64,000 bases of DNA from an uncultured virus (IMG/VR IMGVR_UViG_3300020148_000031) (IMGVR_UViG_3300020148_000031), one strand, 5' to 3'. Shown: positions 1 through 18,278, numbered from the stretch's first letter. Notes: generated from the letters alone by a model not told the origin. Translations and numbers: made by a program.

Positions 1-585
1 ATGTCTAAATTTCATATCAATCAAGAAACAGGAGAAGTAGACACTTGTAGAGCTTCTAAAGGGCGCTGTCCATTTGGTGGAAGTGAGGACCATTACTCTT
101 CAAAGAAAGAAGCAAGAACTGCTTATGAAAACAAAAAGCCTTCTTTCTCCAACACTGATTCTAAAGAAAAAGTGTATAAGGATTATAGGAGAATCCTAAA
201 GGCTCAACCAAGAAGCGTAAGTTCGCGAGCAGGTGACAGAAAACAAAAAGCGCGAGAAATTATTACTCAAAAATATGGGATATCTCACAAAGAATTAAAA
301 GGTATTGTGAGTTCATATGATGAGCAAAATAATATTCGTCACGAAGATAAACAATATATGCGCGACTTTAAAATCTTTACACTTTTAAAAGAAAAGACGG
401 ATGAGTACGAGAAAACTGGGAACCAAGAATGCCCAAAATGTAAACGTTCAGGGAAAGACGACCGCGGGCAAGATCTTATTATAAGACCAAGAATAGTTGA
501 AATGGGAAGAAAAGAAGATGAAATCCCTAAAATTGAAATCTTGTGTTATGAATGCCACTTGAGAAGAATCGGTAAGTTAAAATAA
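1..585 (+). CDS. Protein with N-terminal H-C-C-H module and C-terminal Zn-finger/HNH-like region
   Basis: N-terminus MSKFHINQETGEVDTCRASKGRCPFGGSEDHY is shared with five other ORFs; C-terminal CPKC...CYECH. Confidence 0.65.
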   Translation: MSKFHINQETGEVDTCRASKGRCPFGGSEDHYSSKKEARTAYENKKPSFSNTDSKEKVYKDYRRILKAQPRSVSSRAGDRKQKAREIITQKYGISHKELKGIVSSYDEQNNIRHEDKQYMRDFKIFTLLKEKTDEYEKTGNQECPKCKRSGKDDRGQDLIIRPRIVEMGRKEDEIPKIEILCYECHLRRIGKLK

Positions 586-836
586 TTTCTTTAAATATCT
601 TGTCTCTTATAAAGAAAGCTATATAATGTCAACTCTTGTTGACTTTAAACAGAATATACGAAAGTTCTTGTACCAGGATCAAACACCTGAACATAACCCT
701 CTGACAAAAGAACAATCTCATTAGTAATCTTAGAGCCACTAGAATCAACAAGAGGGTACCGCGAACCTATCTCCATATTTTAGTATCAATATTTCTATGG
801 TACCGAAATATATTTGATGTTATTTATGGTTGATGA

Positions 837-1658
837 TTAAATTGAAGGGATTAAACTATCGCACTCGTCTTCAGAATGATATCTCTTAAATTTTATCTGA
901 ATACGCTGATCTGGAGTAAAAACCTCTTGCTCTTTCTTAAAATCATGCAAAAATGCAGTATCAACAATCTCTGGACCCTCAACACGACCATCAGGGTAAG
1001 AGAAATAAGCAACCCAAACATGCTCGCTACCAGCAATAAAATCTTCACTCTTACCAGAAGAATCATTTGAAATCTTCATCGAAAAACGCTTCTGCTCAAC
1101 TGGTTCATACTTATTAGTAATCTTAGTTTGTTTTCCATAATTATCATAAATCATATCACCGATTTCAAGATCCTTAAGCTTTACTATACCGTAAGGAGTT
1201 GGGATGAGGGTCTCTTCAGACAGCGCTTTTACGCCGGATGGGGATAATAGTTCTCCTGCCTCGTCCACCATCACGAGCAACGCCTGACCCTTCTCTGGAA
1301 GATCCAAGAAGTTGTTTAAACCTAGTTGTTCTAGTTCTGAATAACGTTTCATCATGGTTTGTTGCGCGAAACGCAAGACTGTAAGAGCATCCTGAAGATT
1401 TGTAGCAATTCCTAAAACAACGTTAGAATAAGCACGATACTGTGACAACTCTACTCGTTTCAAGTCAATACCGAGGAATCTCCAAGAATCTGGACGAAGA
1501 ATACAAGAAATAATTATATTCCTCTGTACTACGGAATTGTGGGTCAAAATACTTGTATCATCATTTTGACTTTTGACAGAGAATAACCTGTCAGGGCTAT
1601 CAACGCTAATACACCTTGATAACTCTGGCTCTACTTCTCGTATAGATTTTATTTTCAT
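837..1658 (-). CDS. Fragment 2 of fractured FtsK/SpoIIIE-like ATPase: IntC (aa1-41) + extein (aa42-144, Walker B) + second IntN (aa145-273)
   Basis: Begins with intein blocks F/G (SRCISVDSPDRLF...ILTHN/S). Extein has FtsK motifs GIDLKRVEL, MMKRY, LLVMVDEAGELL. It then continues as ALSEETLIPTPYG...LEIGDMIYDNYGK...AGSEHVW (intein blocks A/B) with no terminal HN. Confidence 0.9.
   Translation of the reverse strand: MKIKSIREVEPELSRCISVDSPDRLFSVKSQNDDTSILTHNSVVQRNIIISCILRPDSWRFLGIDLKRVELSQYRAYSNVVLGIATNLQDALTVLRFAQQTMMKRYSELEQLGLNNFLDLPEKGQALLVMVDEAGELLSPSGVKALSEETLIPTPYGIVKLKDLEIGDMIYDNYGKQTKITNKYEPVEQKRFSMKISNDSSGKSEDFIAGSEHVWVAYFSYPDGRVEGPEIVDTAFLHDFKKEQEVFTPDQRIQIKFKRYHSEDECDSLIPSI
840..1226 (-). 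mobile_element. Split intein N-terminal fragment (IntN-2), Ala1/class 3 type
   Basis: ALSEETLIPTPYG block A with Ala1; block B EHVW with Trp; ORF ends without blocks F/G. Confidence 0.85.
1536..1658 (-). mobile_element. Split intein C-terminal fragment (IntC-1), class 3 type
   Basis: Block F Cys (RCISV), block G THN followed by Ser+1; in-frame stop four codons upstream of the ATG. Confidence 0.9.
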
Positions 1659-1725
1659 TGTCAGCCTTTACTTAGTATAGTAAGTATAGGATCAATATCA
1701 GATTTATCTTGTAGGACTCTTTCTA
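1655..1725. repeat. 71-bp direct repeat, copy 1 (other copy 3073-3143)
   Basis: tcattgtcagcctttacttagtatagtaagtataggatcaatatcagatttatcttgYaggactctttcta; one mismatch (1712 t / 3130 c). Confidence 0.95.
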
Positions 1726-3076
1726 TTGCGGATTGCACTAGTTCGTTCTTTTCATTCCAGTCATCCTCCCAAACAAAGAGCAAAGAGATTCCTTTTTTAT
1801 TAGCTAAATCAAGTTTTGATTTATGATAATCATAACTTTTGAGCCCTCTATTCTTAAAAATAATTTGATCACTGTGCCAATACATTCCGTTGTATTCAAT
1901 TCCAACTTTTAATTCTGGAATGTATATATCTATTTCCTTACCTTCTAGAGGTAAAGAAGTATTCCTATCGATCTTAAGATTTAAGTCTTTTTTTAAAATA
2001 AAATTACTTATTTGAGTCTCCCCTATAGAGGATCTACAAAGTTTACACATATTTCCTTTCATTCTATTACTAATTGAAGCCATCCATTGATGCCCATTAG
2101 AGCAGATCCAATATACTTTTTCAGATGACATTTTAGAGTAACTTTCAGGATTTTGTATATTACGATTATCCCATTCCTCTAAAATGTATTTATATTCAGA
2201 GTTTTCCTCTATGAATGTTTTTAAATCATTAAAGCCGGATTTTAACTTTTTCCCCGAGCATATAGAACATTTATCACCTCTTATGATTCTTCGTCCTATT
2301 TCAGCTTCCCATTCATGATTATTAGAGCAAATCCAATAAACTTTTTCATCACTTCCAAAAGTGTAATTTTCAGGAGCTAAATTATTTTTCGGACTCCATT
2401 CTTTGATTAATTCTTTGCTCATTCTACTTTTAGCGTCATTTACTCCAATTAGGATTACCTTTCCTTTACATACTCCACATGAATTGCTTTTTCGTAAAAA
2501 GACTGTTGATTTATAAGAATGGTTTCCTCTCTTACATTTCCACCAATATTTTTCCCGTGTTGAAAATGATTCTTCTGGAGTTATAATATTTTTATCGTAA
2601 TCCCACGTTTCAACGAGATTTGGATATCTATTTTTAATAGAAACTTTTTTATTCTGGATCTCTTTTCCCCCTGTAAAACATTTTCTACACCCAGTTTTAG
2701 CGATTGTCCTAGATCTTACTGTAGTTTTCCACTCATAATTACATTTACTACAAGTCCAATTTACTATAAGATTACTTACATAAAGAATCTCATTTATATT
2801 GATAGAGTTAGAAATAGAATATTCTTTTGCTAATTCTGGATTTTTGGTATGAAGATCATTAAATCCTTTTAACACTTTACGGTTATTACAAAAAGGGCAT
2901 ATTCTAGAAGTAGAAATAATATTTCTTATCTGCGCAGACCATTCACCATTACAATTTTGACATTTAAATAAGAAATATTTCCTATTAGACAATGAACAAG
3001 AGTAAATATCTTTTTCAGTTTTATCATAAATATAATCTTTGACAAAAGGATACAATTCTAGTAATGTTTCTCTCAT
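1661..3076 (-). CDS. Zinc-ribbon repeat protein with C-terminal Vsr/DUF559-like endonuclease domain (putative free-standing homing endonuclease)
   Basis: Repeated GFNDL...EW...KVYWICSxxHxW...CxxC units; C-terminal EIDIYIPELKVGIEYNGMYWH...WEDDW. Confidence 0.8.
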   Translation of the reverse strand: MRETLLELYPFVKDYIYDKTEKDIYSCSLSNRKYFLFKCQNCNGEWSAQIRNIISTSRICPFCNNRKVLKGFNDLHTKNPELAKEYSISNSININEILYVSNLIVNWTCSKCNYEWKTTVRSRTIAKTGCRKCFTGGKEIQNKKVSIKNRYPNLVETWDYDKNIITPEESFSTREKYWWKCKRGNHSYKSTVFLRKSNSCGVCKGKVILIGVNDAKSRMSKELIKEWSPKNNLAPENYTFGSDEKVYWICSNNHEWEAEIGRRIIRGDKCSICSGKKLKSGFNDLKTFIEENSEYKYILEEWDNRNIQNPESYSKMSSEKVYWICSNGHQWMASISNRMKGNMCKLCRSSIGETQISNFILKKDLNLKIDRNTSLPLEGKEIDIYIPELKVGIEYNGMYWHSDQIIFKNRGLKSYDYHKSKLDLANKKGISLLFVWEDDWNEKNELVQSAIERVLQDKSDIDPILTILSKG

Positions 3077-3143
3077 TGTCAGCCTTTACTTAGTATAGTA
3101 AGTATAGGATCAATATCAGATTTATCTTGCAGGACTCTTTCTA
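3073..3143. repeat. 71-bp direct repeat, copy 2
   Basis: 70/71 identical to 1655-1725. Confidence 0.95.
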
Positions 3144-3174
3144 GAGTAGGATACTTTTTAAAGATTTCTTCCAT
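3079..3174 (-). pseudogene. 31-aa remnant ORF (MEEIFKKYPTLERVLQDKSDIDPILTILSKG), probable internally deleted endonuclease paralogue
   Basis: Read manually; last 20 aa identical to the C-terminus of 1661-3076; ATG overlaps the stop of the upstream gene (TAATG). Confidence 0.5.
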
Positions 3175-3428
3175 TATCTACTTTTAGGGTGATCCCAGTC
3201 ACAATCTATGCTTGCTGTAATACCGTTGTTATTGTAGATTGCACAGTTTATTGTTATACCGTCTTTTGTTGTCACTTCTTGAATGCTTATCTCATTGTTT
3301 GTAGTGCTGGCTTTTTGTTTTTCTTGTGTATTCTTGTTAGTTTCAATTACGATAGGGAGAATAATCATTGCTAGAATTGCCATGACGATAAAAATAATGA
3401 ATAATTCTTGAGTGCGGAGCTTGTCCAT
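3174..3428 (-). CDS. Small membrane-anchored, prepilin-like protein
   Basis: TQELFIIFIVMAILAMIILP resembles a type IV pilin N-terminal helix; C-terminal Cys pair. Confidence 0.45.
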   Translation of the reverse strand: MDKLRTQELFIIFIVMAILAMIILPIVIETNKNTQEKQKASTTNNEISIQEVTTKDGITINCAIYNNNGITASIDCDWDHPKSR

Positions 3429-3445
3429 TATTATGTCCTATCTTT

Positions 3446-4483
3446 TTATAAACTGAATAAAGTAAAGTCTTCTTCTGGTTCTTGCTCGGGAAGTTCAAGA
3501 ACCCATTTGAGTTGACCGGCTGTGGAGACTTTTGTGTAACCTATTTCTTCAAGAATCATGTCGTTATGGTAGAACTCGTTACCTTTTTCTTTAAGTTCTT
3601 TCCTACTTCCAAGTTTTCCACCGTAGAATGTTTGACCGACTCCGGCACCAAAACTACCGGCCATTCTGTTCGGGTTAATGTAGGGAGTCTCAAGAACTTT
3701 TTGTAAATCTGGGTGGCGTTCTTTGCCTTCTTTGTCGATCACTTTTACGTCTTTGGGTGAGTCAGTGTTAAGTACCCACATGTATGCGTCTTCTTTGTTC
3801 GTGTCAAGTAGAGTGAAACCTTGGGCTTCTTTGTATGAACCAAGTGAGTGGCTATAGTTCACATAACTGATGATGTGGGTTGGCTTCTTGTCTTTTACGA
3901 ATTCTTTTTGAAGTCGTGAGGCTGCTCCGTAAATGTGGACTCCCGGTTTGATGGCAAGTCGTAATCCTTCCCAGATGTTTGGAGACTCTAGTTGTGTTTT
4001 CATGCTCCAGCGGTATTTACAGTATTGTTGAACTGCTAGTATTTCGCCAGTGTCTTTAATTTTTAGGGCGTAACTTACTTTTTCGGCACCGGAAGCGTTC
4101 TTTTGAATGTGGTATTTCTTTGAGAATTCGTTACCTATTTCGTTAGTTACTTTAGAAACTGCGAGTCTTTTGGCAGCAAATTTTCTTGTGTCAAGACCTA
4201 ATTTTGAGGTAAAGTGTTGAAAAATGTGGGAGAGTCTTTCGTTTTCCCATGGGTAAATATAATAGATCTCTTTACCTTGATCGTAAGCATTTTGTTTGAT
4301 GGTTCGTAATTCTTGAGTGGTTTTATCGTGTTGACTTACGATATGTATGTCAAGAGTTGTTTTGGGAGAAGTGAGGGTTGTGACATAACCATTTGTTTCA
4401 GAAATAACAGTGTCAGGTAGAGCTTTAATCCAGTTTTCTAGCTCTTCTTGAGTGGTCTGTAGATCTTTTTCAAATTGTGTCAT
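3446..4483 (-). CDS. GNAT-fold protein of the Mom/Hef-associated type
   Basis: FSKKYHIQ, GAASRL, IISYVNYSHSLG-YKxQGF, STAGQLKW motifs. Confidence 0.5.
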   Translation of the reverse strand: MTQFEKDLQTTQEELENWIKALPDTVISETNGYVTTLTSPKTTLDIHIVSQHDKTTQELRTIKQNAYDQGKEIYYIYPWENERLSHIFQHFTSKLGLDTRKFAAKRLAVSKVTNEIGNEFSKKYHIQKNASGAEKVSYALKIKDTGEILAVQQYCKYRWSMKTQLESPNIWEGLRLAIKPGVHIYGAASRLQKEFVKDKKPTHIISYVNYSHSLGSYKEAQGFTLLDTNKEDAYMWVLNTDSPKDVKVIDKEGKERHPDLQKVLETPYINPNRMAGSFGAGVGQTFYGGKLGSRKELKEKGNEFYHNDMILEEIGYTKVSTAGQLKWVLELPEQEPEEDFTLFSL

Positions 4484-4521
4484 GTTAACTTTCTTTCAAT
4501 GCTTTTATTTATTATATCTAT

Positions 4522-4866
4522 TTAGTTGAGGAAAGCTCCCATTTCGTAAGGGTATTCATCAAGAGTTTTGCCTCCTCCCCAAGAATCTTTCTCGTCACGT
4601 TCGTATTGCTCTGGAATGACTCCATTGTCGCTCATCTTCTTCCAATAAGAGAACGAGTAAAGACCATCGTATTCTTTGACTGTAGCGTCAAAATATAGAG
4701 GATTGTATTTAATGAGGTCCCATTTTTCTTGAGCTTCTTCGACTGTTTCAAGTAACCTACCAAAGTTTATTTGTAGGAAATATGAACCATCCTCGATTTT
4801 CCATAATGCTGAGTCTGGGGAACCACCGTGACCAAAGTAGAAGTCTTTGTATATTGTTTTTGACAT
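4522..4866 (-). CDS. Hypothetical protein
   Basis: 114-aa ORF, co-oriented with neighbours, purine-rich RBS. Confidence 0.6.
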   Translation of the reverse strand: MSKTIYKDFYFGHGGSPDSALWKIEDGSYFLQINFGRLLETVEEAQEKWDLIKYNPLYFDATVKEYDGLYSFSYWKKMSDNGVIPEQYERDEKDSWGGGKTLDEYPYEMGAFLN

Positions 4867-4868
4867 GT

Positions 4869-5129
4869 TTAATTTCCTTCAAGGGGAGTAAGAGTGTAGT
4901 CCTTGTTAAAGGAATTGGTGTCTTTGTTCCCCATAGAGACAAACACATAATATTTAGAGAATTTTATGATCATGTTATCTCCTAGGAGAGTTAATTCGTC
5001 AGAGTCAGAATTATAGAATTTTGATCGACATGTGAATTCGACCTCGCTATTACCAATTTTTAAATTCCACATTTGGTTAAGTTTGACTAAAGAGTGAACG
5101 AACGAATTTTTCGGGTTCTTATATTGCAT
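4869..5129 (-). CDS. Hypothetical protein
   Basis: 86-aa ORF with AGGAGG RBS. Confidence 0.6.
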   Translation of the reverse strand: MQYKNPKNSFVHSLVKLNQMWNLKIGNSEVEFTCRSKFYNSDSDELTLLGDNMIIKFSKYYVFVSMGNKDTNSFNKDYTLTPLEGN

Positions 5130-5229
5130 AAAAGCCTCCTATTTTCATATTTATTGTAACATGTTTTTTAGAAAAGTACACCCATTCGATATTTATAATA
5201 TTCTCTTTTTAAAAGTAAGGTGCTTTCAC

Positions 5230-6309
5230 ATGTCTCAAGATTTTCTTAAAGCTGGTGTTGATAGAAGCAAGATTTTTGTCCCGCATTTACGTGTGGATAG
5301 GCAGAAGGATTATAATGTAAGAGAATACGAGACGATCCCAGTTCTTTTTAAAAACGGCGGCGAACGTAACCTTTATAAGAATTTTAATATGACTATTTTT
5401 ATTGATGAACTTTGTAATGCTGATTGCAAGTTCTGCATTTCTTTACTTCGTTATGAGCACAAGAATGAGATTTACGAGAAGCAAAAGATTAAGAATCATG
5501 AAGAGTATTATCGAAGGTTGCGAAAAGTTTTAGATATTGTTGCTCCCTTGCAACCAAGCATTTCGATTACTGGTGGAGAGCCAACTATTTCCCCTCGCAT
5601 TATTGAGATTGCTAAGATTCTTGACGAATATGATATCCGTAAGAGAGTTGTCACGAGTAATTCGACCGGTCTTTTCAGAAAATTTAACGGAGAATTTGTT
5701 ATTGATGCTTTAATCGAGAATAATTTTGATCATATTAATATTTCGCGCTCTCACTATGATGATGCGTTAAATAGAGAAGTGATGCAATATAAAGCAAAGA
5801 ATTATACGAGTTTGAATCATATTGAGAAGGTCCTTACGGTTCTTAATGATTCTCCTATTAGTCACCGTCTGAGTTGCGTGTTGTTACAAGAAGGCGTCAA
5901 AAACCTTGATGATATAAAGAAATATGTTGATGTTCTTTCATCTGTTGGTGGCAATAATTTTATTTTCCGCGAAATGATGGATTTTGATAAGAATTCCGTA
6001 AATAAACCAATGATGGAATATATGGATGCTAACAAAGTCCGCTTGAATGATGTGTGGAAAGAATTCGATAATGATAGCGAAATGGAAGCTGTCATGAATA
6101 TTCTTGGATATTATTATTATGTTGAGATTTACAAATACAAGAATTTTACTGTAACAAGCGAGTCGGCTAATCTTAATCAGCAATATGTTGAGAAGGACAC
6201 TAACCCTGACATGGTTTATGAGATGATTTTTCACGAGAACGGGAACCTTAACGGGTCTTGGATTGAAAGTGAAGACATACTTGATAAATACGATGATTTT
6301 AAGGACTGA
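5230..6309 (+). CDS. Radical SAM protein
   Basis: CNADCKFC (CxxxCxxC), ITGGEPT, HINISRSHY; start placed at MSQDF after AAGGTG. Confidence 0.9.
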   Translation: MSQDFLKAGVDRSKIFVPHLRVDRQKDYNVREYETIPVLFKNGGERNLYKNFNMTIFIDELCNADCKFCISLLRYEHKNEIYEKQKIKNHEEYYRRLRKVLDIVAPLQPSISITGGEPTISPRIIEIAKILDEYDIRKRVVTSNSTGLFRKFNGEFVIDALIENNFDHINISRSHYDDALNREVMQYKAKNYTSLNHIEKVLTVLNDSPISHRLSCVLLQEGVKNLDDIKKYVDVLSSVGGNNFIFREMMDFDKNSVNKPMMEYMDANKVRLNDVWKEFDNDSEMEAVMNILGYYYYVEIYKYKNFTVTSESANLNQQYVEKDTNPDMVYEMIFHENGNLNGSWIESEDILDKYDDFKD

Positions 6310-6312
6310 AAA

Positions 6313-6987
6313 GTGAAAAAAGGTAAACGACTTTATATTTCATTAACAAATAATTGTAATACGACTTGCCCTTTCTGCAGTATGTATTCTGCAGAGGGGA
6401 AAAAGACTTATTTAACCTTTGATAAGTATAAAGAGATCATTGATACGTGTCAAGAAGATTATGAACTTCAAATAGAAGGTGGTGAACCTTTTGTTCACCC
6501 TCAATTTTGGTTATTTCTTGAGTATGGTTTGAGTACTGGGCGTTGTAAGAAGGTTCTTATTCTTACTAATGGAATACTTCTTAATGAACGTTTACAAAAG
6601 TTATTGATTATTAGAAGTGAATACCCTGAGGTTGAGTTCTCTATTAAGATTAGTGTGAATTATTGGTTGTTGAAAGATCCAGAGCATTTAAACAGAGTAA
6701 AGGCAGCTTTGCATTCAACAAAATATGTCCCTGACTTCTCCATACTTTTGAATGTGCGAGAAAGAAACAATGATGATTATACTCCTCTTCTTGAAAAAGA
6801 AGGTTTGTTAGAGTACTCTAACGTTTATAAATTGCAATCATATGGAAAGTTATCTAAAGCGGATAAGGTTTATGAGAAACCTGTAATTGTTCAGAATATT
6901 AACCAATGGGAATTATTCGGTAGCACTGGTGAAAGTTTTGGTCAAGATCTTATTGCAAGAAGTGAAGCCGAGAAATTATTACCATGA
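6313..6987 (+). CDS. Radical SAM protein
   Basis: CNTTCPFC, EGGEPFVHP, ILTNG. Confidence 0.88.
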   Translation: MKKGKRLYISLTNNCNTTCPFCSMYSAEGKKTYLTFDKYKEIIDTCQEDYELQIEGGEPFVHPQFWLFLEYGLSTGRCKKVLILTNGILLNERLQKLLIIRSEYPEVEFSIKISVNYWLLKDPEHLNRVKAALHSTKYVPDFSILLNVRERNNDDYTPLLEKEGLLEYSNVYKLQSYGKLSKADKVYEKPVIVQNINQWELFGSTGESFGQDLIARSEAEKLLP

Positions 6988-7727: not shown

Positions 7728-7831
7728 AAAGTATAATAGAGGAACAAAATAGATCAACATGTGTTGATTTTATTGTTTTATACTGATATTTACTGATCTA
7801 CGTGTTTATTCTTATGCACTTTGGAGTTCTT

Positions 7832-8677
7832 ATGACAAAATACCACATTAACCCTAAAGGGGATGTTACTCTTTGTCGAGCAAAAGTGAAATGCCGCTTT
7901 GGCTCCGAAGATGTTCATTTCTCGTCAAAGTCTGAAGCACTCACATATTTCGAAGATAACTCTCGAACCTTCACAAAAATTAAAAAAGGTCTACATGTCT
8001 CTGACTCGTTAAAGTCACTCGAACAACCACATTCTAATGTTCTTATACTTTCTGATGTTGACGGAACTCTTGTCAAAGGATCCCTCGTTCTTAATCATGC
8101 GTGTGCTCTTCATGATAAAGGAGTCATTGATTTGGGTGACTTACCAGAAAAGTGGAAAGCAGACATGAAGAATGAAGTAATTATTCAAGAGCTTGCTGAG
8201 ACATATCGTGATAAAATTATAGGCCTTCATCTTAAAGATTTAGAGACTAAAGAATTTATTGATGAAGTAGTATCAGATTCAAATAACTTTTATAGTTCTA
8301 TTGATGAGATTAGAACTATGAAGCGCGGCGGAGCTGAAGTTATCCTTATTAGTGGATCTCCTCAATATCTTGTGGGTGAACTTGCTAAGAAGTTTGGATT
8401 TAAAGGTATTGGTAGTGATTATCAAACTGACCGAACAGGGCATTTGAATGGTAAAGTTGTTGGAATGTTCTTTGCCGAGGCAAAAGAAAAGGTTGTTGCT
8501 GAGAGCATTGATCTTAATGAACATAGAGTACAAATTCATGCGTATGGAGACACTAGTAGCGATAAACCATTATTCGATAAAGCTCATCATAAAGTCATTG
8601 TTGATCCTACAAGCGAAACTTTGCGCAAGTTAAATATTCGAAAGAATAATAAAGACTACCGAATTCTTAAAGATTAA
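7832..8677 (+). CDS. HAD-superfamily (SerB/IB-like) phosphatase with N-terminal H-C-C-H module
   Basis: SDVDGTLV motif I, LISGS motif II, AYGDTSSD motif IV; MTKYHINPKG...CRAKVKCRF...H leader. Confidence 0.85.
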   Translation: MTKYHINPKGDVTLCRAKVKCRFGSEDVHFSSKSEALTYFEDNSRTFTKIKKGLHVSDSLKSLEQPHSNVLILSDVDGTLVKGSLVLNHACALHDKGVIDLGDLPEKWKADMKNEVIIQELAETYRDKIIGLHLKDLETKEFIDEVVSDSNNFYSSIDEIRTMKRGGAEVILISGSPQYLVGELAKKFGFKGIGSDYQTDRTGHLNGKVVGMFFAEAKEKVVAESIDLNEHRVQIHAYGDTSSDKPLFDKAHHKVIVDPTSETLRKLNIRKNNKDYRILKD

Positions 8678-8856: not shown

Positions 8857-9231
8857 ATGAAAAATCTTGGATTTATTATAGAATCGCTTGTCTCTTTAGA
8901 CAATGGTGTCTTTAAGGCTGAAGAATTTGATTCTTTGTGTAGCCAGAGCATCACAGAAAACTCTACTCTTGTTGAATTAAATGGTTCAACCACTATACTT
9001 TTTGACGTAATGAGGTTTGACTTCGAGGGAAGAGAAACACAAGTAATCTTCTTAAAGAAAATGATCGGTGAAGAAGTAAAATATTATATTTCTCTTCAAC
9101 AGAAACATTATGAAGCTTTTAGCGTATATGTCAAAGACGAGAATAATATAAGGGTCCATGTTTTTGAAGCGTCAGATGAGTCATGGGACAATGCAAGCTC
9201 GCTTGCCCTTTTCATTGGACTAATACTTTAA
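8857..9231 (+). CDS. Hypothetical protein
   Basis: 124-aa ORF with upstream GATATT motif. Confidence 0.6.
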   Translation: MKNLGFIIESLVSLDNGVFKAEEFDSLCSQSITENSTLVELNGSTTILFDVMRFDFEGRETQVIFLKKMIGEEVKYYISLQQKHYEAFSVYVKDENNIRVHVFEASDESWDNASSLALFIGLIL

Positions 9232-9365
9232 GAAAACTTTTCGTAAACTTCTTTCGCTTTATTATCAAAATGTGCTAATTCGTTAGAGATTGGACAGGTT
9301 CTTACAGAAGCTGTCCACACGTCAACATTACCAGTTTTAGGATTAATATGATACTTTTTAGCCAT
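9228..9365 (-). CDS. 45-aa stand-alone (possibly decayed) H-C-C-H module
   Basis: Not in the ORF track; MAKKYHINPKTGNVDVWTASVRTCPISNELAHFDNKAKEVYEKFS with GAGG RBS; first Cys replaced by Trp. Confidence 0.65.
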   Translation of the reverse strand: MAKKYHINPKTGNVDVWTASVRTCPISNELAHFDNKAKEVYEKFS

Positions 9366-9384
9366 TAGAATACCTCTGTTTCTT

Positions 9385-10131
9385 TTACAAGAAATTCAAT
9401 GGTTTGTTGAGACTTTTTATTTTGGTTAGCCAGTTATAACGGCGAATAGACTCGCTTTTATAAATCATGTTCATAAACTTCTCATTACTTTTAACACTCG
9501 TAACTAGATCATCAACAGAATTAAATTTCGTTTCCTTTAAACCTAAGATATTAAATTTTTGAATATAATAATGATCTGGCTCGTCCTTTTTAACGACTAT
9601 TGAAAGGTTAGGGTGTAGTTGAGTACCTCCATTATATTCGCTAGAAATCTCAATCATTATTCCATGTTGGAATTGATCTTTGTGATCTTTGAAGAATTTT
9701 CCGAGATTTTCCTTAAGAGTTTCTTCATTCTTAATAAAACTCATATAAGGAATAAAATCAGCATATAATCCATCAGTAGTCATTCCGTACTTATATAAAT
9801 ACTTATGAATGAATGGAATAGATTTGTCATTTAAATCAGGATTGAAAGCCTCATAACCTCTGATAAACGCTCCGAATTGCTCAGGCTTCATTTCGCTAGG
9901 GTCAGTTTCAATGAGAGAAGTAAAATCTTCGAGCTCTTTTTCGCGCTCTTTTTCGAGATTTGGTCTTTTTTGAAGAACGGCCAATAATTCTTTTTTCATT
10001 TCATTTTCAAAGCTGCGTAACGCTTCATCAAACGTATCGAAATGGTTTTCCAATCCAAGAGGGCAAACTCTTAACCTTGCTCTACACACGGAAACAAGCC
10101 CATTAGAGTTATAATGAAATTTTTGAGACAT
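9385..10131 (-). CDS. Hypothetical protein with N-terminal H-C-C-H module
   Basis: MSQKFHYNSNGLVSVCRARLRVCPLGLENHF leader. Confidence 0.7.
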   Translation of the reverse strand: MSQKFHYNSNGLVSVCRARLRVCPLGLENHFDTFDEALRSFENEMKKELLAVLQKRPNLEKEREKELEDFTSLIETDPSEMKPEQFGAFIRGYEAFNPDLNDKSIPFIHKYLYKYGMTTDGLYADFIPYMSFIKNEETLKENLGKFFKDHKDQFQHGIMIEISSEYNGGTQLHPNLSIVVKKDEPDHYYIQKFNILGLKETKFNSVDDLVTSVKSNEKFMNMIYKSESIRRYNWLTKIKSLNKPLNFL

Positions 10132-10171
10132 AAGAACCCTTCTTTAATGAAATATATAAAGATTTTTCTAA

Positions 10172-11395: not shown

Positions 11396-11413
11396 TAAAC
11401 TCTCTTTATAAGG

Positions 11414-11659: not shown

Positions 11660-11783
11660 AATATTTCTCCTTAGACTATTTTATTAATTTTCTAAAAGAA
11701 CATGAGTATTCTTTTAAAAGCTGTTGATTATTTTACCTCTTCCGCATTTAAAGTAGTTTTTTAGAGTTCATGAGTTTTACTTC

Positions 11784-13871
11784 TTATGATTGTTCCATGA
11801 ATCCTGCATCGAGTATTCCTACAAGATTAGTCACTTGTTCCTCCTTGTCTCTACCAAGACCCGATGGGACAATGGTTGAAGTGAGACTGATTCCGTCAAG
11901 GGCATCATCATAATTTAACTTACCGACTGAGAGCATTGATGGAATCATTCCATGCTTGTCGGCTCCGTTACTTGGGTTTGCTCCTGGAGCGAAAGGTTCA
12001 CCTTTGCGGTGACCGTCTGGGAAGTTACCTGTATTGCGACCATACACCACGTTTGAGGTAATTGTAAGTACGCTCTGAGTAGGGATAGCATCCCTATACA
12101 AAGGTTGTTCTTTAATTTTAGACATGACTGTGTGAACTATTGTTGCTGCAATGTCGTCAACTCTATCATCATCGTTTCCGTAGCGTGGGAAGTCACCTAT
12201 TGTCTTGTAATCAACAATGAGTCCGCTTTCGTCTCTAATTGGGTAGACTTTAGCGTATTTGATTGCTGAAAAACTATCGGCAACGATGGAAAGTCCGGCA
12301 ATTCCACAACCAAGAGTTCGGATGATATCACTGTCATGGAGAGCCATTTCTATTGCTTCATAAGCATATTTGTCGTGGCTATAGTGAATGATATTGAGAG
12401 CCTCAACGTATGTTCCCACTACCCAGTCGAGCATGTCCTCGTATTTTTCCCAAGCTTCATCAAAGTCGATTGGAGTGTTCTCATCAGCGGTGATTGGTTC
12501 ATAGCCAGATACGATTTGTTTTCCAGTTATTTCATCTTTACCGCCATTGAAAGCATAAAGCAATGCTTTAGCAGAATTTACTCGAGCGCCAAAGAATTGC
12601 ATTTGTTTTCCAACTGCCATTGGTGATACACAACATGCGATTGCTGAATCATCACCCCAGTGGCAGAGGATTTGATCATCGGCTTCATATTGGAGAGCGC
12701 TTGTTTCTATACTGATAGCACTACAGAACCTCTTATAACCTTCTGGTAAGTTTGGTGACCAGAATATAGTGATGTTTGGTTCTGGAGCAGGACCGAGGTT
12801 TCGTAATGTTTGAAGTAATCTGAATGAAGTCTTAGTGACTTGCGGACGGCCGTCTTCTGAGAATCCTCCATCACTCCATGTTGCCCAGTATGGGTCTCCA
12901 GAGAAGATTTGGTCATAGTCCTTAGTTCTTAAGAACCTTACAATTCTTAATTTGATAACAAGGGCATCAATGATTTCTTGAGCTTCAGTTTCGGTAAGAG
13001 TTCCTTCAGCAAAATCTCTTTCAGAGTAAATGTCAAGGAATGCACTTAATCGACCTAAACTCATGGCTGCACCGTCTTGCGATTTGATAGAGGCGAGGTA
13101 ACCCATGTATGTCCATTGAACGGCTTCTTTAAAGTTTCTTGCTGGGCGCCCAAGTTCTAGACCGTATTCTTCTCCAAGATTTTTTAATTTTTTGAGAGCC
13201 TTTATTTGCTCTGAATGTTCTTCGCGGTATCGAGCCCAGTGTTCTGAGAATCCTTGGTTTACATTCTTGTCTTTGTCTTTAGTTTTTTCTTGAATAAGTG
13301 TATCAACACCATAGAGAGCAACTCGTCGGTAGTCGCCAATGATTCGACCGCGACCGTAAGCATCTGGAAGTCCAGTAATGATGTGACTTGATCGGGCTGC
13401 TCGGATTCTTGGGGTATATATGTCAAAGACTCCATCGTTGTGAGTCTTACGATATTTTGTAAAGATTTCTTTCACTTTTTCATTGTGTTCTAGTCCTGCT
13501 TCATTAATGGCAGTTTCGACCATTCTCCACCCACCGTTTGGCATCATTGCTCTTTTGAGTGGTACATCTGTTTGTAACCCTACAATTACATCATCTTCGT
13601 CATTGATGTAACCAGCTTTGAAGGCATCAATGTCTGATGGAACATTTACATCAACATCAAAGACTCTTTTCTTTCTTTCGACTGAAAGGTAGTTTTCTTC
13701 CAAGTATTTCCATGTTCGGAGAGTTTTTTCGGTTGGACCCGAGAGGAAACTTTCATCACCGTGGAATGGTGTGTAATGTTTTTGAATAAAATCTCTAAGA
13801 TCAACAGTTGTTGACCAAGAGCCTGGAGTGAAATTTCTGTGTTCTTCCGAACGATAAAGGGATTCAGTCAT
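11784..13871 (-). CDS. pflB: Pyruvate formate-lyase lacking the C-terminal glycyl-radical domain
   Basis: GLPDAYGRGRIIGDYRRVALYG, IACCVS active-site cysteines, TITSNVVYG; ends at GILDAGF. Confidence 0.95.
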   Translation of the reverse strand: MTESLYRSEEHRNFTPGSWSTTVDLRDFIQKHYTPFHGDESFLSGPTEKTLRTWKYLEENYLSVERKKRVFDVDVNVPSDIDAFKAGYINDEDDVIVGLQTDVPLKRAMMPNGGWRMVETAINEAGLEHNEKVKEIFTKYRKTHNDGVFDIYTPRIRAARSSHIITGLPDAYGRGRIIGDYRRVALYGVDTLIQEKTKDKDKNVNQGFSEHWARYREEHSEQIKALKKLKNLGEEYGLELGRPARNFKEAVQWTYMGYLASIKSQDGAAMSLGRLSAFLDIYSERDFAEGTLTETEAQEIIDALVIKLRIVRFLRTKDYDQIFSGDPYWATWSDGGFSEDGRPQVTKTSFRLLQTLRNLGPAPEPNITIFWSPNLPEGYKRFCSAISIETSALQYEADDQILCHWGDDSAIACCVSPMAVGKQMQFFGARVNSAKALLYAFNGGKDEITGKQIVSGYEPITADENTPIDFDEAWEKYEDMLDWVVGTYVEALNIIHYSHDKYAYEAIEMALHDSDIIRTLGCGIAGLSIVADSFSAIKYAKVYPIRDESGLIVDYKTIGDFPRYGNDDDRVDDIAATIVHTVMSKIKEQPLYRDAIPTQSVLTITSNVVYGRNTGNFPDGHRKGEPFAPGANPSNGADKHGMIPSMLSVGKLNYDDALDGISLTSTIVPSGLGRDKEEQVTNLVGILDAGFMEQS

Positions 13872-14025
13872 GGGGACCTCCTGTAGGAGTTAACAATAGA
13901 GGACGAATTTTTGACCATCCTGTATATTATATATTATATCAATACAGTTTTCAGTTTGATATGCGACTTAGGTCGTGGTTTCCGAAAAATTTGTTAGAAA
14001 GGTTTTTATATTTTTGGAGTTATTA

Positions 14026-14283
14026 ATGAAACGTTACCATGTTAATCCTAAAACTGGGAATCCTAATATTTGTCAAGCTAAAATAGGTTTTTGTCCTTTT
14101 GGGGCAGATGAACCACATTACCTTTCAAAAGATGAAGCAAGGAAGGCCACTGAAAATAAATATAATGAGGTTTATGGCTTTTTTGGGTCTCCCGTAGATG
14201 AGATTCTTGAAATGGAGTCAATTGTAGAAATTGCAGACAAAAAGAATAAATCTGTTACAATATTTAGTAAAGATTTAGATTAA
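14026..14283 (+). CDS. Small protein consisting mostly of the H-C-C-H module
   Basis: MKRYHVNPKTGNPNICQAKIGFCPFGADEPHY; GGAG RBS before the ATG at 14026. Confidence 0.7.
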   Translation: MKRYHVNPKTGNPNICQAKIGFCPFGADEPHYLSKDEARKATENKYNEVYGFFGSPVDEILEMESIVEIADKKNKSVTIFSKDLD

Positions 14284-14463
14284 AGCCCTTCAGAATTACC
14301 CAGAATTAAAAGAAGAGAGGGTCCCTCTATTTTTAGTGTTTTTAGAAGGTCTTAGTCTTTATTCTAAACATATAACGATAGAGTCCATACAATTACATTC
14401 ATCATACATAAAACCCGCTCTAACTGCAGTCTAAATACGTTAGGGAGCAATATAAGGGTAATT

Positions 14464-15282
14464 TTAATGAATACGTTGAGTCTGAGTGTTTACTCTTTCA
14501 AGAAGGTCAGAATTAGAGAGATATGGAGTGTCAAATTCAATCCAATCGCTTTCCTCCATTACAAAAGAGTTAGTCTCATTGTTAAATTTGGGGTAAGATT
14601 TCCTCACCCAGTTAAGTTTACGCGAAACTTCATTTGTTACTGGGTTCACTCGCGAATAATGGAAAACTGTGCAATTGTAAATCTTCTCTTGAGGGTCAGA
14701 GTCTTTCATAAGATATTCTTCGTCACTCCAGCGCTCCAGGATAAGCCGCATCGCCCACATGAATTCTCCGTGAGTAACAAGAAGAACATTCTCCTCTTCA
14801 TTCTCACGATGAAGAGTTGAGAGAAGATTTCTTACGCGATTATCAGCAACTGATGCAATAGATTCACCAGCAGGAGGAGTCCAGTAAAGAGGGTCCTTCT
14901 TTTTAAGAATAGCGTTCTGTGGGTATTCCTCAGCAAATTGCTTGAGAGGAATTGAATCAATTTCTCCCCATGAGCGCTCACGAATGACACGGTTTTCTTC
15001 CCATCGAGGGTCAGAAAGATTTAAGCATGCTGCGGTTTCACGAGTGCGCGTAAAAGGCGAAACAAAGTAACGATCAATTCCACTAGAGAATTCTTTAGAG
15101 ATCCACTCTCCAGCGCAACTCGCTTGTTCTCTACCAGTGTCTGTAAGTCTCCAAGACCGATCGGGGACAGTCATGAACTCTTCAGTGTTCAATCTGAAAT
15201 CATCATTCTTGAATGATTCTTGACGAAGATTAGACTCACTTTGTCCGTGGCGAACGAGAATAAGGTTCTTAGGCATTGACAT
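14464..15282 (-). CDS. Histidine phosphatase / phosphoglycerate mutase family protein
   Basis: LVRHGQS, SPFTRTRET, LLVTHG. Confidence 0.9.
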   Translation of the reverse strand: MSMPKNLILVRHGQSESNLRQESFKNDDFRLNTEEFMTVPDRSWRLTDTGREQASCAGEWISKEFSSGIDRYFVSPFTRTRETAACLNLSDPRWEENRVIRERSWGEIDSIPLKQFAEEYPQNAILKKKDPLYWTPPAGESIASVADNRVRNLLSTLHRENEEENVLLVTHGEFMWAMRLILERWSDEEYLMKDSDPQEKIYNCTVFHYSRVNPVTNEVSRKLNWVRKSYPKFNNETNSFVMEESDWIEFDTPYLSNSDLLERVNTQTQRIH

Positions 15283-15526
15283 GAGAGATAACCTCCAGTG
15301 AGAGGGGAGGGCTTGGAATAAGGTATTTGAGATCCTCTTGAGAAATTACATCGTTCTTTTTGTATCTACCCCAAAGAGTGATTTGGATATCCTTAGAGCT
15401 AGAGAATTTAACATAATCGTCTACTTTAAAAGGGTTTTTGACTGAAGTGCGAAGAAATGTTGCACCTCGAAGAGTAACAAGGCTTTTCCCATTCTCATAC
15501 TTGAGCACTTCAGAAACAAAAATCAT
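15269..15526 (-). CDS. Hypothetical protein
   Basis: 85-aa ORF overlapping the start of the phosphatase gene. Confidence 0.5.
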   Translation of the reverse strand: MIFVSEVLKYENGKSLVTLRGATFLRTSVKNPFKVDDYVKFSSSKDIQITLWGRYKKNDVISQEDLKYLIPSPPLSLEVISHVNA

Positions 15527-15594
15527 TTTATTCTCAATTCTTTCAAAGTTTTACCATGTTGCATATAATAACACAAGATTAAGAATTTAACAAA

Positions 15595-16221
15595 TTATTT
15601 TTGAACTAATGTGGGGATATTAATATTTTCTCCTAAAAGAAGCAATTGTTCAGTGTTAACAACTTTACCGATGATAACTTTCCACTTTTTTCTATATTGA
15701 CGCTTACCTGTGAGTGATAGCATTTGTTGACAAAATTGTCTAGCATCATAAGTTCTAAAACCCTTTTGGATTTCAATTTCTTCATATGTGTCAAGATCGC
15801 TATAAGAGAGGTTAGTTTCGGCAATATGCCCTAAAGATTCTGCTATACGGACAGTAAGGTTTTGTATTTTGTTATCTTTTTCTCCACCAACGAGATATAC
15901 CATGTCAATAAGAGAAGTTTCAACTTCATCTTCACTGTTAGCTACATTAAGTAAAAGTTGTATTGACTCTTTAGGTAGATTCTTCAATGTTTTCTTCGCT
16001 TCTTTCACTCGAAGATAATGAAGCTCTTTATCAATTTCAGTTTCAATATACCACAAGTGATTACCCGATGCTTTAATAATTGATCCATTGTCAAGAGTAA
16101 TTTCATATGTTTTCTCTGGAATGTGTGGGTCATAAGCATCAGTTACGGTAACAGGTTTTCCATTTTTCCCTATGATTCTATCACCAGGTTTAATTTCTGA
16201 TAATTTTTTATATTTTGTCAT
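15595..16221 (-). CDS. Free-standing central Hint (intein) fragment, putative IntM of a three-piece split intein
   Basis: KKLSEIKPGDRIIGKNGKPVTV...TYEITLDNGSIIKASGNHLW (post-block-A strands plus block B); lacks block A and blocks F/G; in-frame stop three codons upstream of the ATG. Confidence 0.82.
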   Translation of the reverse strand: MTKYKKLSEIKPGDRIIGKNGKPVTVTDAYDPHIPEKTYEITLDNGSIIKASGNHLWYIETEIDKELHYLRVKEAKKTLKNLPKESIQLLLNVANSEDEVETSLIDMVYLVGGEKDNKIQNLTVRIAESLGHIAETNLSYSDLDTYEEIEIQKGFRTYDARQFCQQMLSLTGKRQYRKKWKVIIGKVVNTEQLLLLGENINIPTLVQK

Positions 16222-17063
16222 ATTTTCTTACCTTCGTCTAGTGACTCTAACATATATTTATATATCTCGTCTTCTGCTTTTAAAGCAGCCTCTTTAGAAA
16301 TTAACCAATCAGATTTTGTAAATTTAAGAGGGTGAATAATTTGAAGTCTTGAATCGTTCACATTAAAAGTCATTCCTATCACTTTTTGCCTAACAGAGAA
16401 ATAACTATCATCTTTCTCCGGATAAAGATTCTTTAATAATTGGGAATTTTCTAGTTCTAAAAAGGTCGCCCATGTTAAATTCTTTAAAACACTTTCATCA
16501 AGATCTTTTGCAAAAGGCATAATAAGGAATAAATACATTCTCTCACGAGAACTATTAGAAAGAAGATCATTGATCATGTCAATATTTTCAGGTTTGTTTA
16601 ATTCATCAGTAATAAGACTTAGGTCTAAGAAGATAAGAGTCACTTTTCGTCCGGGTGGCTCCAAAAAACCGGAGCCCTTATTTGCATTTCTTATGTGTTC
16701 TCGAAATGCTATCAGATCTTTTAGACATTGTGTAAGACCCTCTTGATAATTTTTGTAGGAATAGAAATTCTTATAAGTTTTCGAAAGTATTGAGCAAATG
16801 TCTTCAGAAGATTCATTGAAATCAAAGAATGCTATTTCTGCACTATTACTAAATTTGCTTGTTTGATCAGCAATATTTTTAATGAATGTTATTTTTTCTA
16901 GCTCGCTCTCGCCATAAAAAAGAGCAGCATTAGAATGAGTGATAGGAGACCAATAAAGGAATTTACGGAAAGTTCTGTAAAGTTTAAAATTTACATCTAC
17001 TTTAGACACTCTCAAACCATTCCTTAGGCGAGGGTCTATCAGTAATCTAGGGTAATATTCCAT
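16218..17063 (-). CDS. Possible degenerate FtsK/P-loop-fold protein
   Basis: HSNAALFYGESELEK (decayed Walker A), AFFDF, TLIFLD, RERMYLFL in FtsK-like order; ATGA overlap with the Hint-fragment gene. Confidence 0.4.
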   Translation of the reverse strand: MEYYPRLLIDPRLRNGLRVSKVDVNFKLYRTFRKFLYWSPITHSNAALFYGESELEKITFIKNIADQTSKFSNSAEIAFFDFNESSEDICSILSKTYKNFYSYKNYQEGLTQCLKDLIAFREHIRNANKGSGFLEPPGRKVTLIFLDLSLITDELNKPENIDMINDLLSNSSRERMYLFLIMPFAKDLDESVLKNLTWATFLELENSQLLKNLYPEKDDSYFSVRQKVIGMTFNVNDSRLQIIHPLKFTKSDWLISKEAALKAEDEIYKYMLESLDEGKKI

Positions 17064-17153
17064 ATAATAAAATCATTTCTTTTTTAAAAAATATCAAGAA
17101 GTAAAAAGAACTATTACCTCTTATCATAATATTTTATCAAAAACAAATTTTAT

Positions 17154-18278
17154 TCAATCTCTAAAATCAACACGTCCAGTAGTTGAAGTATCATAAGTAT
17201 TGTTTTTAGAGTAACTCTTTTTCCCTAAAGATTTTGGAATATTCTTGTCCCCAAGGATTCTTCGCCATACTGCTTGAGAACCCTCTGTTTGTATCGTTGA
17301 TTCTGAAAGATATAAGCCTTTTTGTTTTAACATCCGCGCTGTATAAATATAAAGGGAAACACCTAAGCCGTTTCCTTTATGCGAATCATTTAATGAAACA
17401 TAATCGACAGTTGGTGTTGAATGATTTTCTTTGAATTGAGAATATAATTCTGACGCTCTATCCTGAACTTTTTTTAATTCTTTATCGAGTATCTTTTCAT
17501 CTTTTGGAGCCATATCTTCACTTAAATTAATTAGCATTCCCCAGGGAAGAGAAGATCGATCAACACTTTCGGGTAACAAATTAAGACCCTTGTGTGCTTT
17601 AGCCCAAATTAACGATTTTTTAATTAATCTTTCTTTATCAGTGTCATCTTTTAATAATGGCGATCTATATGGAGAATATTTCACTTCATTGAAAGGGTCT
17701 TGTTCCATTCCAAAACTGGACCCCTCCCATTCATTGCAATAACAAAGAGCAGACCACTCGTCCTCACCCCATGATCTTTTAACTGAAGAATCATCAGCCC
17801 ACTCTGTTGTTAAGAAACCCTTAAGTTCTCCAGTATTAAAATCACGATAAACTAAACGTGACATATGACAACCTCTTTCTATTTGGATAGTTAAATCTCT
17901 AGAGCTAAGAGAATCATCTTCCCAAATTACTGCAAGTTTTCCTAGATTTTCATCCTCTATTACATCAATTATTTCGGGAGATTTATATCCGCGAGGCATA
18001 AGAAAATTCTGATAATTTTTAAAATCATCAATTTCTTGAAACCATTGGGGGATAGGTCCGTCGTATTCTAATGATGAATTTAAAGCATGTAATGTATATT
18101 TAGAGCTTTTATATGTACCATTTTTAATGAGATCTTCTTTTTCCATGAATCTCTCATAGTCTTTTCGCGCTGATTCTGGATTATGGTAATGTTCATTTAG
18201 CGGAGCAAATGGGCACTTTTTTGTTGCTTTACAAACGCCAACTTCTCCAGTTTCGCTATTGATATGGTATTTGTTCAC
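17154..18278 (-). CDS. H-C-C-H module plus C-terminal GNAT acetyltransferase-like domain
   Basis: MNKYHINSETGEVGVCKATKKCPF...H leader; VDYVSLNDSHKGNGLGVSLY...QTEGSQAVW. Confidence 0.7.
   Translation of the reverse strand: MNKYHINSETGEVGVCKATKKCPFAPLNEHYHNPESARKDYERFMEKEDLIKNGTYKSSKYTLHALNSSLEYDGPIPQWFQEIDDFKNYQNFLMPRGYKSPEIIDVIEDENLGKLAVIWEDDSLSSRDLTIQIERGCHMSRLVYRDFNTGELKGFLTTEWADDSSVKRSWGEDEWSALCYCNEWEGSSFGMEQDPFNEVKYSPYRSPLLKDDTDKERLIKKSLIWAKAHKGLNLLPESVDRSSLPWGMLINLSEDMAPKDEKILDKELKKVQDRASELYSQFKENHSTPTVDYVSLNDSHKGNGLGVSLYIYTARMLKQKGLYLSESTIQTEGSQAVWRRILGDKNIPKSLGKKSYSKNNTYDTSTTGRVDFRD

Follow-up and report, generated by a model that had tools for sequence, protein, structure and literature searches.

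A conserved N-terminal His-Cys-Cys-His module on a diversified protein family of giant elements with a type IV secretion backbone

Short conserved domains that sort varied payloads are familiar from bacterial secretion: LXG in type VII systems and MIX, FIX and PAAR in type VI systems serve polymorphic toxin and effector families as N-terminal domains for trafficking or adaptor functions, and the XVIPCD of Xanthomonas type IV secretion system (T4SS) effectors is a C-terminal domain that binds VirD4. A 64,000-nt stretch of DNA from an uncultured virus in IMG/VR (IMGVR_UViG_3300020148_000031; the whole stretch is hereafter the window) shows a comparable arrangement, in which six open reading frames (ORFs) begin with a shared H-C-C-H module of ~45 amino acids (aa) and then diverge. 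As in the polymorphic effector families, one short conserved domain sits on many unrelated payloads, and the genes cluster on replicons that encode a secretion machine. The module differs from those families in having no sequence or fold relation to their domains, in its far smaller, His/Cys-based build and in its payloads, most of which look repair- or modification-like and not toxin-like. No adjacent immunity genes were identified beside module genes, small neighboring ORFs not having been systematically analyzed. We conclude that the module is an undescribed domain on a known architectural principle, that of polymorphic effectors with a shared trafficking domain, and we tentatively favor its interpretation as a zinc-stabilized docking handle through which varied enzymes would join a single partner encoded by the element.

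Polyvalent proteins, which carry 2–15 effector domains per polypeptide on phages and conjugative elements, have been proposed to be early effectors that accompany the DNA on its delivery (Iyer et al. 2017, PMC5512222). As far as the available sections of that paper describe them, they resemble the module family in their T4SS-element habitat and in payload types also found behind the module, namely ART-PolyVal (E 2e-14), Zeta-type kinases, HNH, GNAT-like domains and a weak LPD29 match (E 5e-4). Module genes, unlike polyvalent ones, encode one payload behind a common N-terminal module, and each protein in which Pfam detects a payload has just one enzymatic domain. Because there is one payload per protein, these are not polyvalent proteins in the strict sense, and the same sections do not mention the module. 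Bacillus phage G carries a lineage-specific expansion of ~35 stand-alone zinc ribbons, possibly transcription factors (PMC7824862, available sections), which likewise places a small Cys/His domain in tens of copies on one giant mobile replicon; the module, however, is a fusion partner, whereas the phage G ribbons stand alone.

Two giant elements have been described with gene contents that invite comparison. Inocle is reported as a circular oral element of Streptococcus hosts (~350 kb, ~32% GC) that encodes VirB4/VirD4, Pol III, gyrase, a RecD-like helicase and a sigma factor (PMC12340149), and Hodor is a giant plasmid-like element of ~350 kb with VirB4/VirD4-type transfer genes (PMC12934698). 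From what the available text reports, Inocle is much like the window and its 344,889-bp relative G002 (below) in size, GC content, transfer genes and replication genes, a likeness for which the sequence-level comparison consists of two primers only. Both published Inocle primers were absent from the window, in which only 64 kb of the element is visible. Inocle is circular and oral, whereas the two long relatives of the window (G001 and G002) are linear with inverted repeats, and window DNA is present in sequencing runs labeled as ant, compost, skin and fungus metagenomes, with no RNA run listed among them. The available sections on Inocle and Hodor contain no mention of the module.

Translations and alignments confirmed the module on exactly the six ORFs named in the initial annotation, which start at positions 1, 7832, 9365(-), 10131(-), 14026 and 18278(-); in each, the segment begins at residue 1 or 2. 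A hidden Markov model (HMM) built from the six copies and scored against all 1,195 stop-to-stop frames of the window recovered these ORFs at E 2e-21 to 7e-27 and no seventh copy, the next best frame scoring E 0.66. A second HMM from 149 family members, which include four of the window's own copies, found the same six alone (E 2e-11 to 4e-24). Residues H5, N7, G11, A18, C23, H31, A38 and E43 are invariant among the six, and the first Cys (C16) is present in five. The motif first proposed for the module fits most copies, the exceptions being a W for the first Cys in the ORF at 9228-9365(-) and an ATE rather than [YF]E ending in the ORF at 14026. A GGAG/GAGG-like, Shine-Dalgarno-like site lies 6–10 nt 5' of all five starts that have visible upstream DNA.

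Behind the module, the six ORFs differ widely. ORF 1 (194 aa; 1..585, + strand; module nt 1-135; HMM E 9e-27) starts at the ATG with which the window begins, its upstream region lying out of view. Its payload contains CPKC...CYEC motifs and is 32% identical to the payload of another module-bearing protein (P0077); the Zn-finger/HNH-like character first ascribed to it is matched weakly in Pfam by Lambda_ea8_5 (E 0.0014, below cut-off). ORF 2 (281 aa; 7832..8677, +; module nt 7832-7960) does carry the HAD phosphatase originally recognized there, of HAD-IB type (PF12710, E 9e-12; phrog_23509, E 6e-36; TIGR01488, 63 bits against a cut-off of 45). Since a homologue of this payload in G002 (212 aa, 48% identity) occurs without the module, the module appears to be separable from the enzyme and optional for it. 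ORF 3 (45 aa; 9228..9365, -; HMM E 6e-24) is the stand-alone module with W for its first Cys and is probably degenerate. ORF 4 (248 aa; 9385..10131, -; module nt 9997-10131; HMM E 2e-21) has a 200-aa payload with no Pfam match and, in a comparison with the payloads of family proteins, no match but itself. ORF 5 (85 aa; 14026..14283, +; module nt 14026-14160; HMM E 7e-27) consists of the module and a disordered 40-aa tail. ORF 6 (374 aa, GTG start; 17154..18278, -; module nt 18147-18278; HMM E 2e-22) has a 330-aa payload that is 47% identical to the payload of module-bearing P0072. The GNAT assignment of this payload could not be verified: it had no Pfam match, and most of it was modeled by AlphaFold2 with a predicted local distance difference test score (pLDDT) below 50. 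A word-index search with the module alone, and with ORF 6, returned nothing beyond the query itself.

The polymorphic cargo family suspected from the window proved real and much larger than the window. Scored against 1.84 billion protein representatives (clusters at 50% identity), the six-copy profile matched 4,532 at E<=1e-3 and 1,012 at E<=1e-10. Architecture was studied in the best 150 of the 4,532 matches. The module starts at or before residue 10 in 149 of these 150, and the exceptions to a single N-terminal copy are a C-terminal module in P0022 and tandem modules in two proteins. The part after the module has a median length of 204 aa and is shorter than 40 aa in 8/150; the remaining 142 payloads (>=40 aa) fall into 102 BLASTP clusters, 80 of them singletons. 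A conserved domain followed by variable C-terminal domains, the pattern that defines polymorphic effectors, is found here.

Conservation of the module across this diversity is high. The family consensus is M-x-K-Y-H-I-N-P-x-T-G-N-P-G-x-C-R-A-x(3-4)-C-P-F-G-G-x(3)-H-Y-x-S-K-E-E-A-R-x-A-Y-E. In 149 sequences the four candidate ligands H, C, C and H are conserved at 100%, 99%, 100% and 100%, G12, A19 and A40 at 100%, E45 at 98%, G27 at 95% and N8 at 93%; ~17 positions are near-invariant, with about a dozen beyond H/C/C/H above 80%. This conservation holds on contigs spanning 31-62% GC. Database entries that could account for it were not found. Pfam-A, NCBIfam and PHROGs gave no module match at E<=0.1 on the six window proteins, save DUF7227 at E 0.059 on one protein. 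Scoring the 149 members against Pfam at E<=1 produced nothing recurrent (the top candidate, DUF7552, appeared in 7/149 with a best E of 0.041), and among PDB sequences the profile matched no more than 13 residues, at chance level (E 0.61). The module is accordingly covered by no characterized entry in Pfam, NCBIfam, PHROGs or PDB sequences, and it is not mentioned in the literature searched, supplements lying outside that search.

AlphaFold2, run with the 149-sequence alignment on ORF 5, models the module as an autonomously folding mini-domain of ~45 residues: a beta-hairpin (strands 3-6 and 13-16), a loop with C23, H31 just ahead of a helix (35-51), and then a disordered tail. The pLDDT in two different proteins (ORF 5 and ORF 6) is 88-95 for residues 1-40 and 85 for residues 41-50, and is low beyond residue 50; the ORF 5 model scores ~90 over residues 1-50 and 54-58 in its tail, and the ORF 6 model 91-95 over residues 1-40. 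A Foldseek search of the PDB with the module model found nothing at E<=1e-3 (best E about 1). In VIA-align, the best Z across 48,161 chains was 4.5, for Kunitz/BPTI-like chains, a range that the tool classes as a common arrangement. The likeness consists of a beta-hairpin followed by a C-terminal helix over ~45 residues (Z 3.5-4.5, root-mean-square deviation 1.8-2.5 over 39-43 residues). Kunitz domains, however, are secreted and have six Cys in three disulfides, against two conserved Cys in a cytoplasmic module, and with scores in the common-arrangement range we reject homology. In a library of viral models all high-probability matches came from a single metagenomic record, 'Siphoviridae sp. 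ctHip2', and comprised seven proteins (probability 0.97-1.00; identity 24-36% across 46-61 columns), which we count as family members.

The near-complete conservation of the H/C/C/H quartet and the confident mini-fold lend plausibility to the initial annotation of a Zn-binding module, and the module likely binds a metal ion, though binding itself is predicted only. Labile sites of two Cys and two His also serve in zinc-thiol switches, which raises an improbable alternative: the module could be a regulatory switch or stability tag, a metal- or redox-sensitive cap that keeps potentially toxic enzymes inactive or marked for proteolysis until a signal such as entry into a new cell or oxidative stress. 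Besides the site type, the toxin-like payloads (four Zeta toxins and an ADP-ribosyltransferase exoenzyme) would suit such a switch, as would the separability of module and enzyme seen for the module-less HAD homologue in G002. Yet harmless payloads, HAD and ligases among them, also carry the module, no protease or sensor partner was identified, and the many conserved surface positions beyond the ligands point instead to a specific partner.

Those same positions bear on what we favor, the docking handle. Because conservation far exceeds what four metal ligands would need, and does so across contigs of 31-62% GC, it suggests one conserved interaction; a single shared partner is on balance somewhat favored. 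The six window copies share 42% protein identity, and codon-position conservation is lowest at third positions (0.47, against 0.58 and 0.59), so they appear to be old paralogues under protein-level selection rather than products of recent DNA duplication. These observations count against the most improbable of the readings weighed, in which the module is a mere N-terminal folding or expression cap with no shared partner, spread by recombination that gave captured fragments a start and a ribosome site. Its strictly N-terminal position (149/150) and the tandem arrays described below, which invite recombination, would fit a cap, but ~17 conserved positions maintained over that GC range go far beyond a cap's needs.

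A sequence motif common to the upstream regions of three module genes would also fit spread as a cap. The octamer GTTAGAAA occurs six times in the window, on both strands, and three occurrences sit 33-109 nt 5' of module genes: at 7723-7730 (+), 109 nt 5' of ORF 2, at 13993-14000 (+) and at 10165-10172 (-). Each of these three is followed by a TATAAT/TATATT-like box, and the octamer may be a shared promoter or operator of the module family. No Rfam match was found in window 1-20,000 at E<=0.01, and there is no tRNA gene in the window.

All six module copies lie within positions 1-18,278, and the HMM scan and Pfam bear out the original statement that none falls in the adjoining transfer backbone (18384..63975, - strand), whose first gene adjoins ORF 6. 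Pfam identifies in this backbone an SSB, two TrbL/VirB6 proteins, a T2SSE-type ATPase, an SbcC-like protein, a sigma-70 factor, two HU proteins, a lysozyme, PIN-PhoH, TadE, NikA (55830-56675) and GmrSD_C; a VirD4-like protein is encoded at 60981-63326. A pattern scan of IMG/VR yielded two longer records, G001 (437,576 bp) and G002 (344,889 bp), both linear with inverted terminal repeats. G001 has 20 module copies, several of them mirrored in the end repeats, and G002 has 10, or 13 with the family HMM. The 39 ORFs of the window backbone (18,384-63,975) follow the same order as G002 152,370-203,027, at 22-77% identity. Gene-for-gene colinearity is shown for G002, which was fetched whole, and G001 was compared through its VirD4-like protein and TrbL. 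The window's VirD4-like protein has homologues in G001 (44% identity, E 6e-165) and G002 (51%, E 5e-242), and TrbL is encoded in both, so that the proposed tie between the module and this element family holds. The backbone edge is directly flanked, in G002 as in the window, by module genes together with a pair of FtsK-like genes, and module genes also lie beside an FtsK-like gene in the metagenome loci L021 and L024; the FtsK/SpoIIIE call comes from Pfam in L021 and L024 and from homology only, with no Pfam match, in the window and G002. The FtsK-like proteins of the window are encoded at 16218-17063, 15595-16221 and 837-1658.

Several further features describe the backbone and its bearers. 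The shared 46-kb backbone spans the 34% GC window and the 42% GC G002, and it holds two giant TrbL-domain proteins (977-1,277 aa) and a GNAT with 77% identity across the two elements. Relatives of the VirD4-like protein number 163 at E<=1e-20 (for the 120 listed, identity is 40-67%), and the contigs that bear them reach 828 kb. The relatives come from Logan, JGI, ENA and, for three, NCBI. Intein-type insertions seem to be present in many of these relatives (1,031-1,338 aa), and PF14528 in two. The best PLSDB match to the VirD4-like protein is 26% identical, and the phage collection contains no match. The long contigs raised the possibility of a cellular small-genome origin. Because neither G001 nor G002 has a 16S rRNA gene or ribosomal protein L2, these two are not cellular genomes, and we reject that origin for them only. 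In G001, matches to the module and to VirD4 recur in mirror image from either end, as far as at least 107.6 kb, reflecting either inverted terminal repeats longer than 100 kb or a palindromic assembly artifact; the terminal inverted repeat of G002 is only 55 bp, and perfect.

G002 encodes its own replisome (PHROGs: Pol III-type polymerase, clamp, clamp loader, DnaB, primase and type II topoisomerase), together with an NAD-ligase, ribonucleotide reductase, a RecA-like protein, ParA, polynucleotide kinase and RNA ligase. Proteins packaged in a capsid and injected with the DNA are known from T4, whose internal proteins and Alt behave in this way, and the giant elements could analogously be jumbo phages with the module as a tag for virion packaging and ejection. 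Family members that carry a taxon label (Atlas neighbours) are filed as Viruses/Uroviricota, although few members are labeled and the Atlas neighbours of the module are unnamed, Zeta-toxin or LRV clusters; the fold occurs in the seven 'Siphoviridae sp. ctHip2' proteins, and both G001 and G002 are IMG/VR records with inverted terminal repeats. Three G002 ORFs have rIIA/rIIB-family matches and others are SbcC/D-like, and these, with PIN-PhoH and a Pol III-type replisome, are features typical of jumbo phages in the available sections of PMC7824862. We nevertheless consider this explanation highly improbable: no major capsid, portal or full-length terminase was found by PHROGs among the 113 largest G002 ORFs outside the backbone, nor any virion protein among 38 window ORFs, and the conserved backbone is instead a T4SS with a NikA-type accessory and a VirD4-like protein. 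The 'terminase' matches mostly overlap an intein region or a P-loop stretch, one falling outside that explanation (L037:5248-6432, phrog_2666, E 7.5e-11), and the 'tail' and 'head' matches are partial peptidase or Ig-like domains.

Outside these elements the module is rare. Two module proteins used as tblastn queries gave no match to the module in 50,697 phage records, a collection that was not checked for the presence of phage G, and none in 72,556 plasmid records, where five matches cover payload residues 59-217 only, without the module. Among 401 Actinomycetota genomes sampled, one has the module, and this is the search centre itself, Nocardioides sp. Root140, in which two tandem module genes (L004, contig_13, 6001-8286) lie ~2.4 kb from an HTH_17 excisionase-like gene. 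A peptide-pattern scan of genome contigs used one narrow pattern and gave four loci, and is no census. Metagenome loci contain tandem arrays of 12 copies in 20.3 kb (L014), 7 in 20.1 kb (L021), 5 in 5.2 kb (L023) and 4 in 3.5 kb (L001), on contigs of 31-62% GC with FtsK/SpoIIIE, T2SSE, T2SSF, HerA-like ATPases, NucS and DUF3039 as neighbors. The module is essentially confined to one lineage of giant T4SS-bearing elements. Since it is missing from other mobile elements and genomes, the partner of a docking handle would be encoded by the element rather than be universal. A possible third, divergent copy (LHRSPDG...C...CPF...H) is visible at 7939-8286 of the Nocardioides locus.

Payloads that could indicate function were recognized by Pfam at E<=1e-4 in 10 of the 150 best matches: Zeta toxin/AAA_33 in four, and HD, NUDIX, RNase T, an ADP-ribosyltransferase exoenzyme, PGDYG and LRV in one each. 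Metagenome loci contribute an NAD-dependent DNA ligase (L021:7683-9953), HNH (L014), HD (L030) and a weak GNAT match (L005), while G002 contributes a T4-type RNA ligase, 2H phosphoesterase, RNase T, YqaJ-like nuclease, HD_4, an M78/IrrE-like peptidase and ART-PolyVal. The recognizable payloads lean strongly to RNA and DNA end repair and modification, and to ADP-ribosylation. Within module arrays that have ADP-ribosyltransferase payloads, ADP-ribosylglycohydrolase genes were also observed (L014:1974-2897(-); G002 233052-234095, equivalent to L047:5052-6095), and the combination hints at a writer/eraser pair.

In eukaryotic DNA ligase III, an N-terminal PARP-type zinc finger guides the enzyme to its substrate. 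By the same logic, the main rival to the docking handle holds that the module is a nucleic-acid-targeting finger that recognizes a feature of RNA or DNA (such as a broken end, nick, tRNA or modified base) and recruits enzymes of repair and modification to this substrate. The identified payloads are indeed largely nucleic-acid enzymes (ligases, 2H, RNase T, YqaJ-like, HD, HNH, NUDIX, Zeta/AAA_33 and HAD) that together resemble a kinase/phosphatase/ligase/phosphoesterase RNA-repair set, and tandem and stand-alone modules suit a binding domain. However, the net charge of the module in 149 sequences has a median of 0 and a mean of +0.18, with an acidic stretch ahead of the second His, unlike most nucleic-acid-binding fingers, and no known finger is matched by sequence or fold. 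A universal substrate also predicts wide spread, whereas the module was not found in the phage and plasmid collections searched or in 400/401 Actinomycetota genomes. The ADP-ribosyltransferases, the M78/IrrE-like peptidase and the LRV repeats do not obviously act on nucleic acids, and 140/150 proteins have no Pfam payload at all. Weakened by the neutral charge and the narrow distribution, a nucleic-acid finger seems to us possible but rather unlikely.

The docking handle that we favor could work as follows. One metal ion, putatively zinc, would be held by His5, Cys16, Cys23 and His31 and would stabilize the mini-domain, which would be the hallmark of a hyper-diversified family on giant (345-437 kb and larger) extrachromosomal elements with a T4SS/conjugation backbone and their own replisome. 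Placed at the extreme N terminus and followed by a tail of low model confidence (as in ORF 5), the handle may link each enzyme to the one element-encoded partner, putatively through a conserved face of Y4, N7, R39, Y42 and E43. Across the family, the linkers show no more than a mild enrichment in S/T/P/K. The enzymes coupled in this way would comprise RNA and DNA ligases, 2H and HD phosphoesterases, P-loop kinases, HAD phosphatase, NUDIX, exonucleases, HNH, ADP-ribosyltransferases and a metallopeptidase, along with ~100 unknown domains. The purpose we would favor is hand-over to the VirD4-like or FtsK-like ATPases, such that counter-defense and repair enzymes could enter the recipient with the DNA. 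Delivery through the T4SS, which would parallel the proposal for polyvalent proteins, is itself unlikely. In its strongest form, which we regard as similarly doubtful, the module would be the N-terminal zinc-finger-like signal of a new effector superfamily, recognized by VirD4-like/FtsK-like coupling ATPases, with a dozen or more enzymes injected per element.

A number of observations speak against a docking or delivery handle. To our knowledge, T4SS signals are C-terminal or internal (relaxase-type), unlike the N-terminal module (149/150). Stand-alone modules, such as the 45- and 85-aa ORFs of the window and the 8/150 proteins in which less than 40 aa follow the module, have no obvious use as cargo tags, and the two tandem-module proteins and the one C-terminal module look more like a binding domain than a signal. 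Nucleic-acid enzymes dominate the identified payloads, which favors the substrate-targeting alternative. Both the payload picture and the architecture rest on small shares of the data, with no Pfam payload in 140/150 proteins and those 150 being the best of 4,532 matches. Finally, virion-category PHROG matches do occur in G002, few and partial as they are (intein region, peptidase, Ig-like), and a phage-like nature is possible.

Whatever its role, the module is a cheap and highly specific marker, with ~17 near-invariant positions in 45 residues. It identifies an uncharted protein family of very large size (at least 4,532 clusters at 50% identity) and, through that family, poorly described giant mobile elements that today's collections of phages and plasmids lack. 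Should the module serve as a handle for docking or delivery, a reporter fused to its 45 residues could reveal effects of these elements on hosts and recipients, and the hundred-plus unknown payloads would be candidate counter-defense and nucleic-acid-repair activities. A signal read by VirD4 or FtsK would be the first N-terminal, metal-dependent T4SS substrate signal, and would allow thousands of 'hypothetical proteins' to be catalogued as translocated effectors. A nucleic-acid finger, in turn, would be a new small recognition domain on ligases, kinases and phosphoesterases, of interest for RNA-repair biology and for use as a tool.

Other features of these elements are also of note. Near the right end of G002, at 304-321 kb (L051:356-17069), a tandem run of thirteen paralogues (~351-417 aa), none of them matched in PHROGs, forms a second expanded family, distinct from the module family. 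In the window, the FtsK/SpoIIIE-like ORF at 837-1658(-) shares 78% identity with G002 62207-63313 over 144 aa before it continues into a Hint/intein-like segment; next to it, within 1661-4483(-), are a DUF4379 treble-clef repeat protein and a homing/HNH-endonuclease-like ORF. The arrangement across 837-4483 suggests that an intein or homing endonuclease has invaded the ATPase gene. A pyruvate formate-lyase-like gene at 11414-13871(-), in a region of 41% GC against 34% for the window and with no Rfam intron match, is split just ahead of the glycyl-radical loop: a 695-aa ORF (11784-13871) stops at position 65 of the Gly_radical profile, and after a gap of 124 nt an 81-aa ORF (11414-11659) in another frame picks up at position 66.

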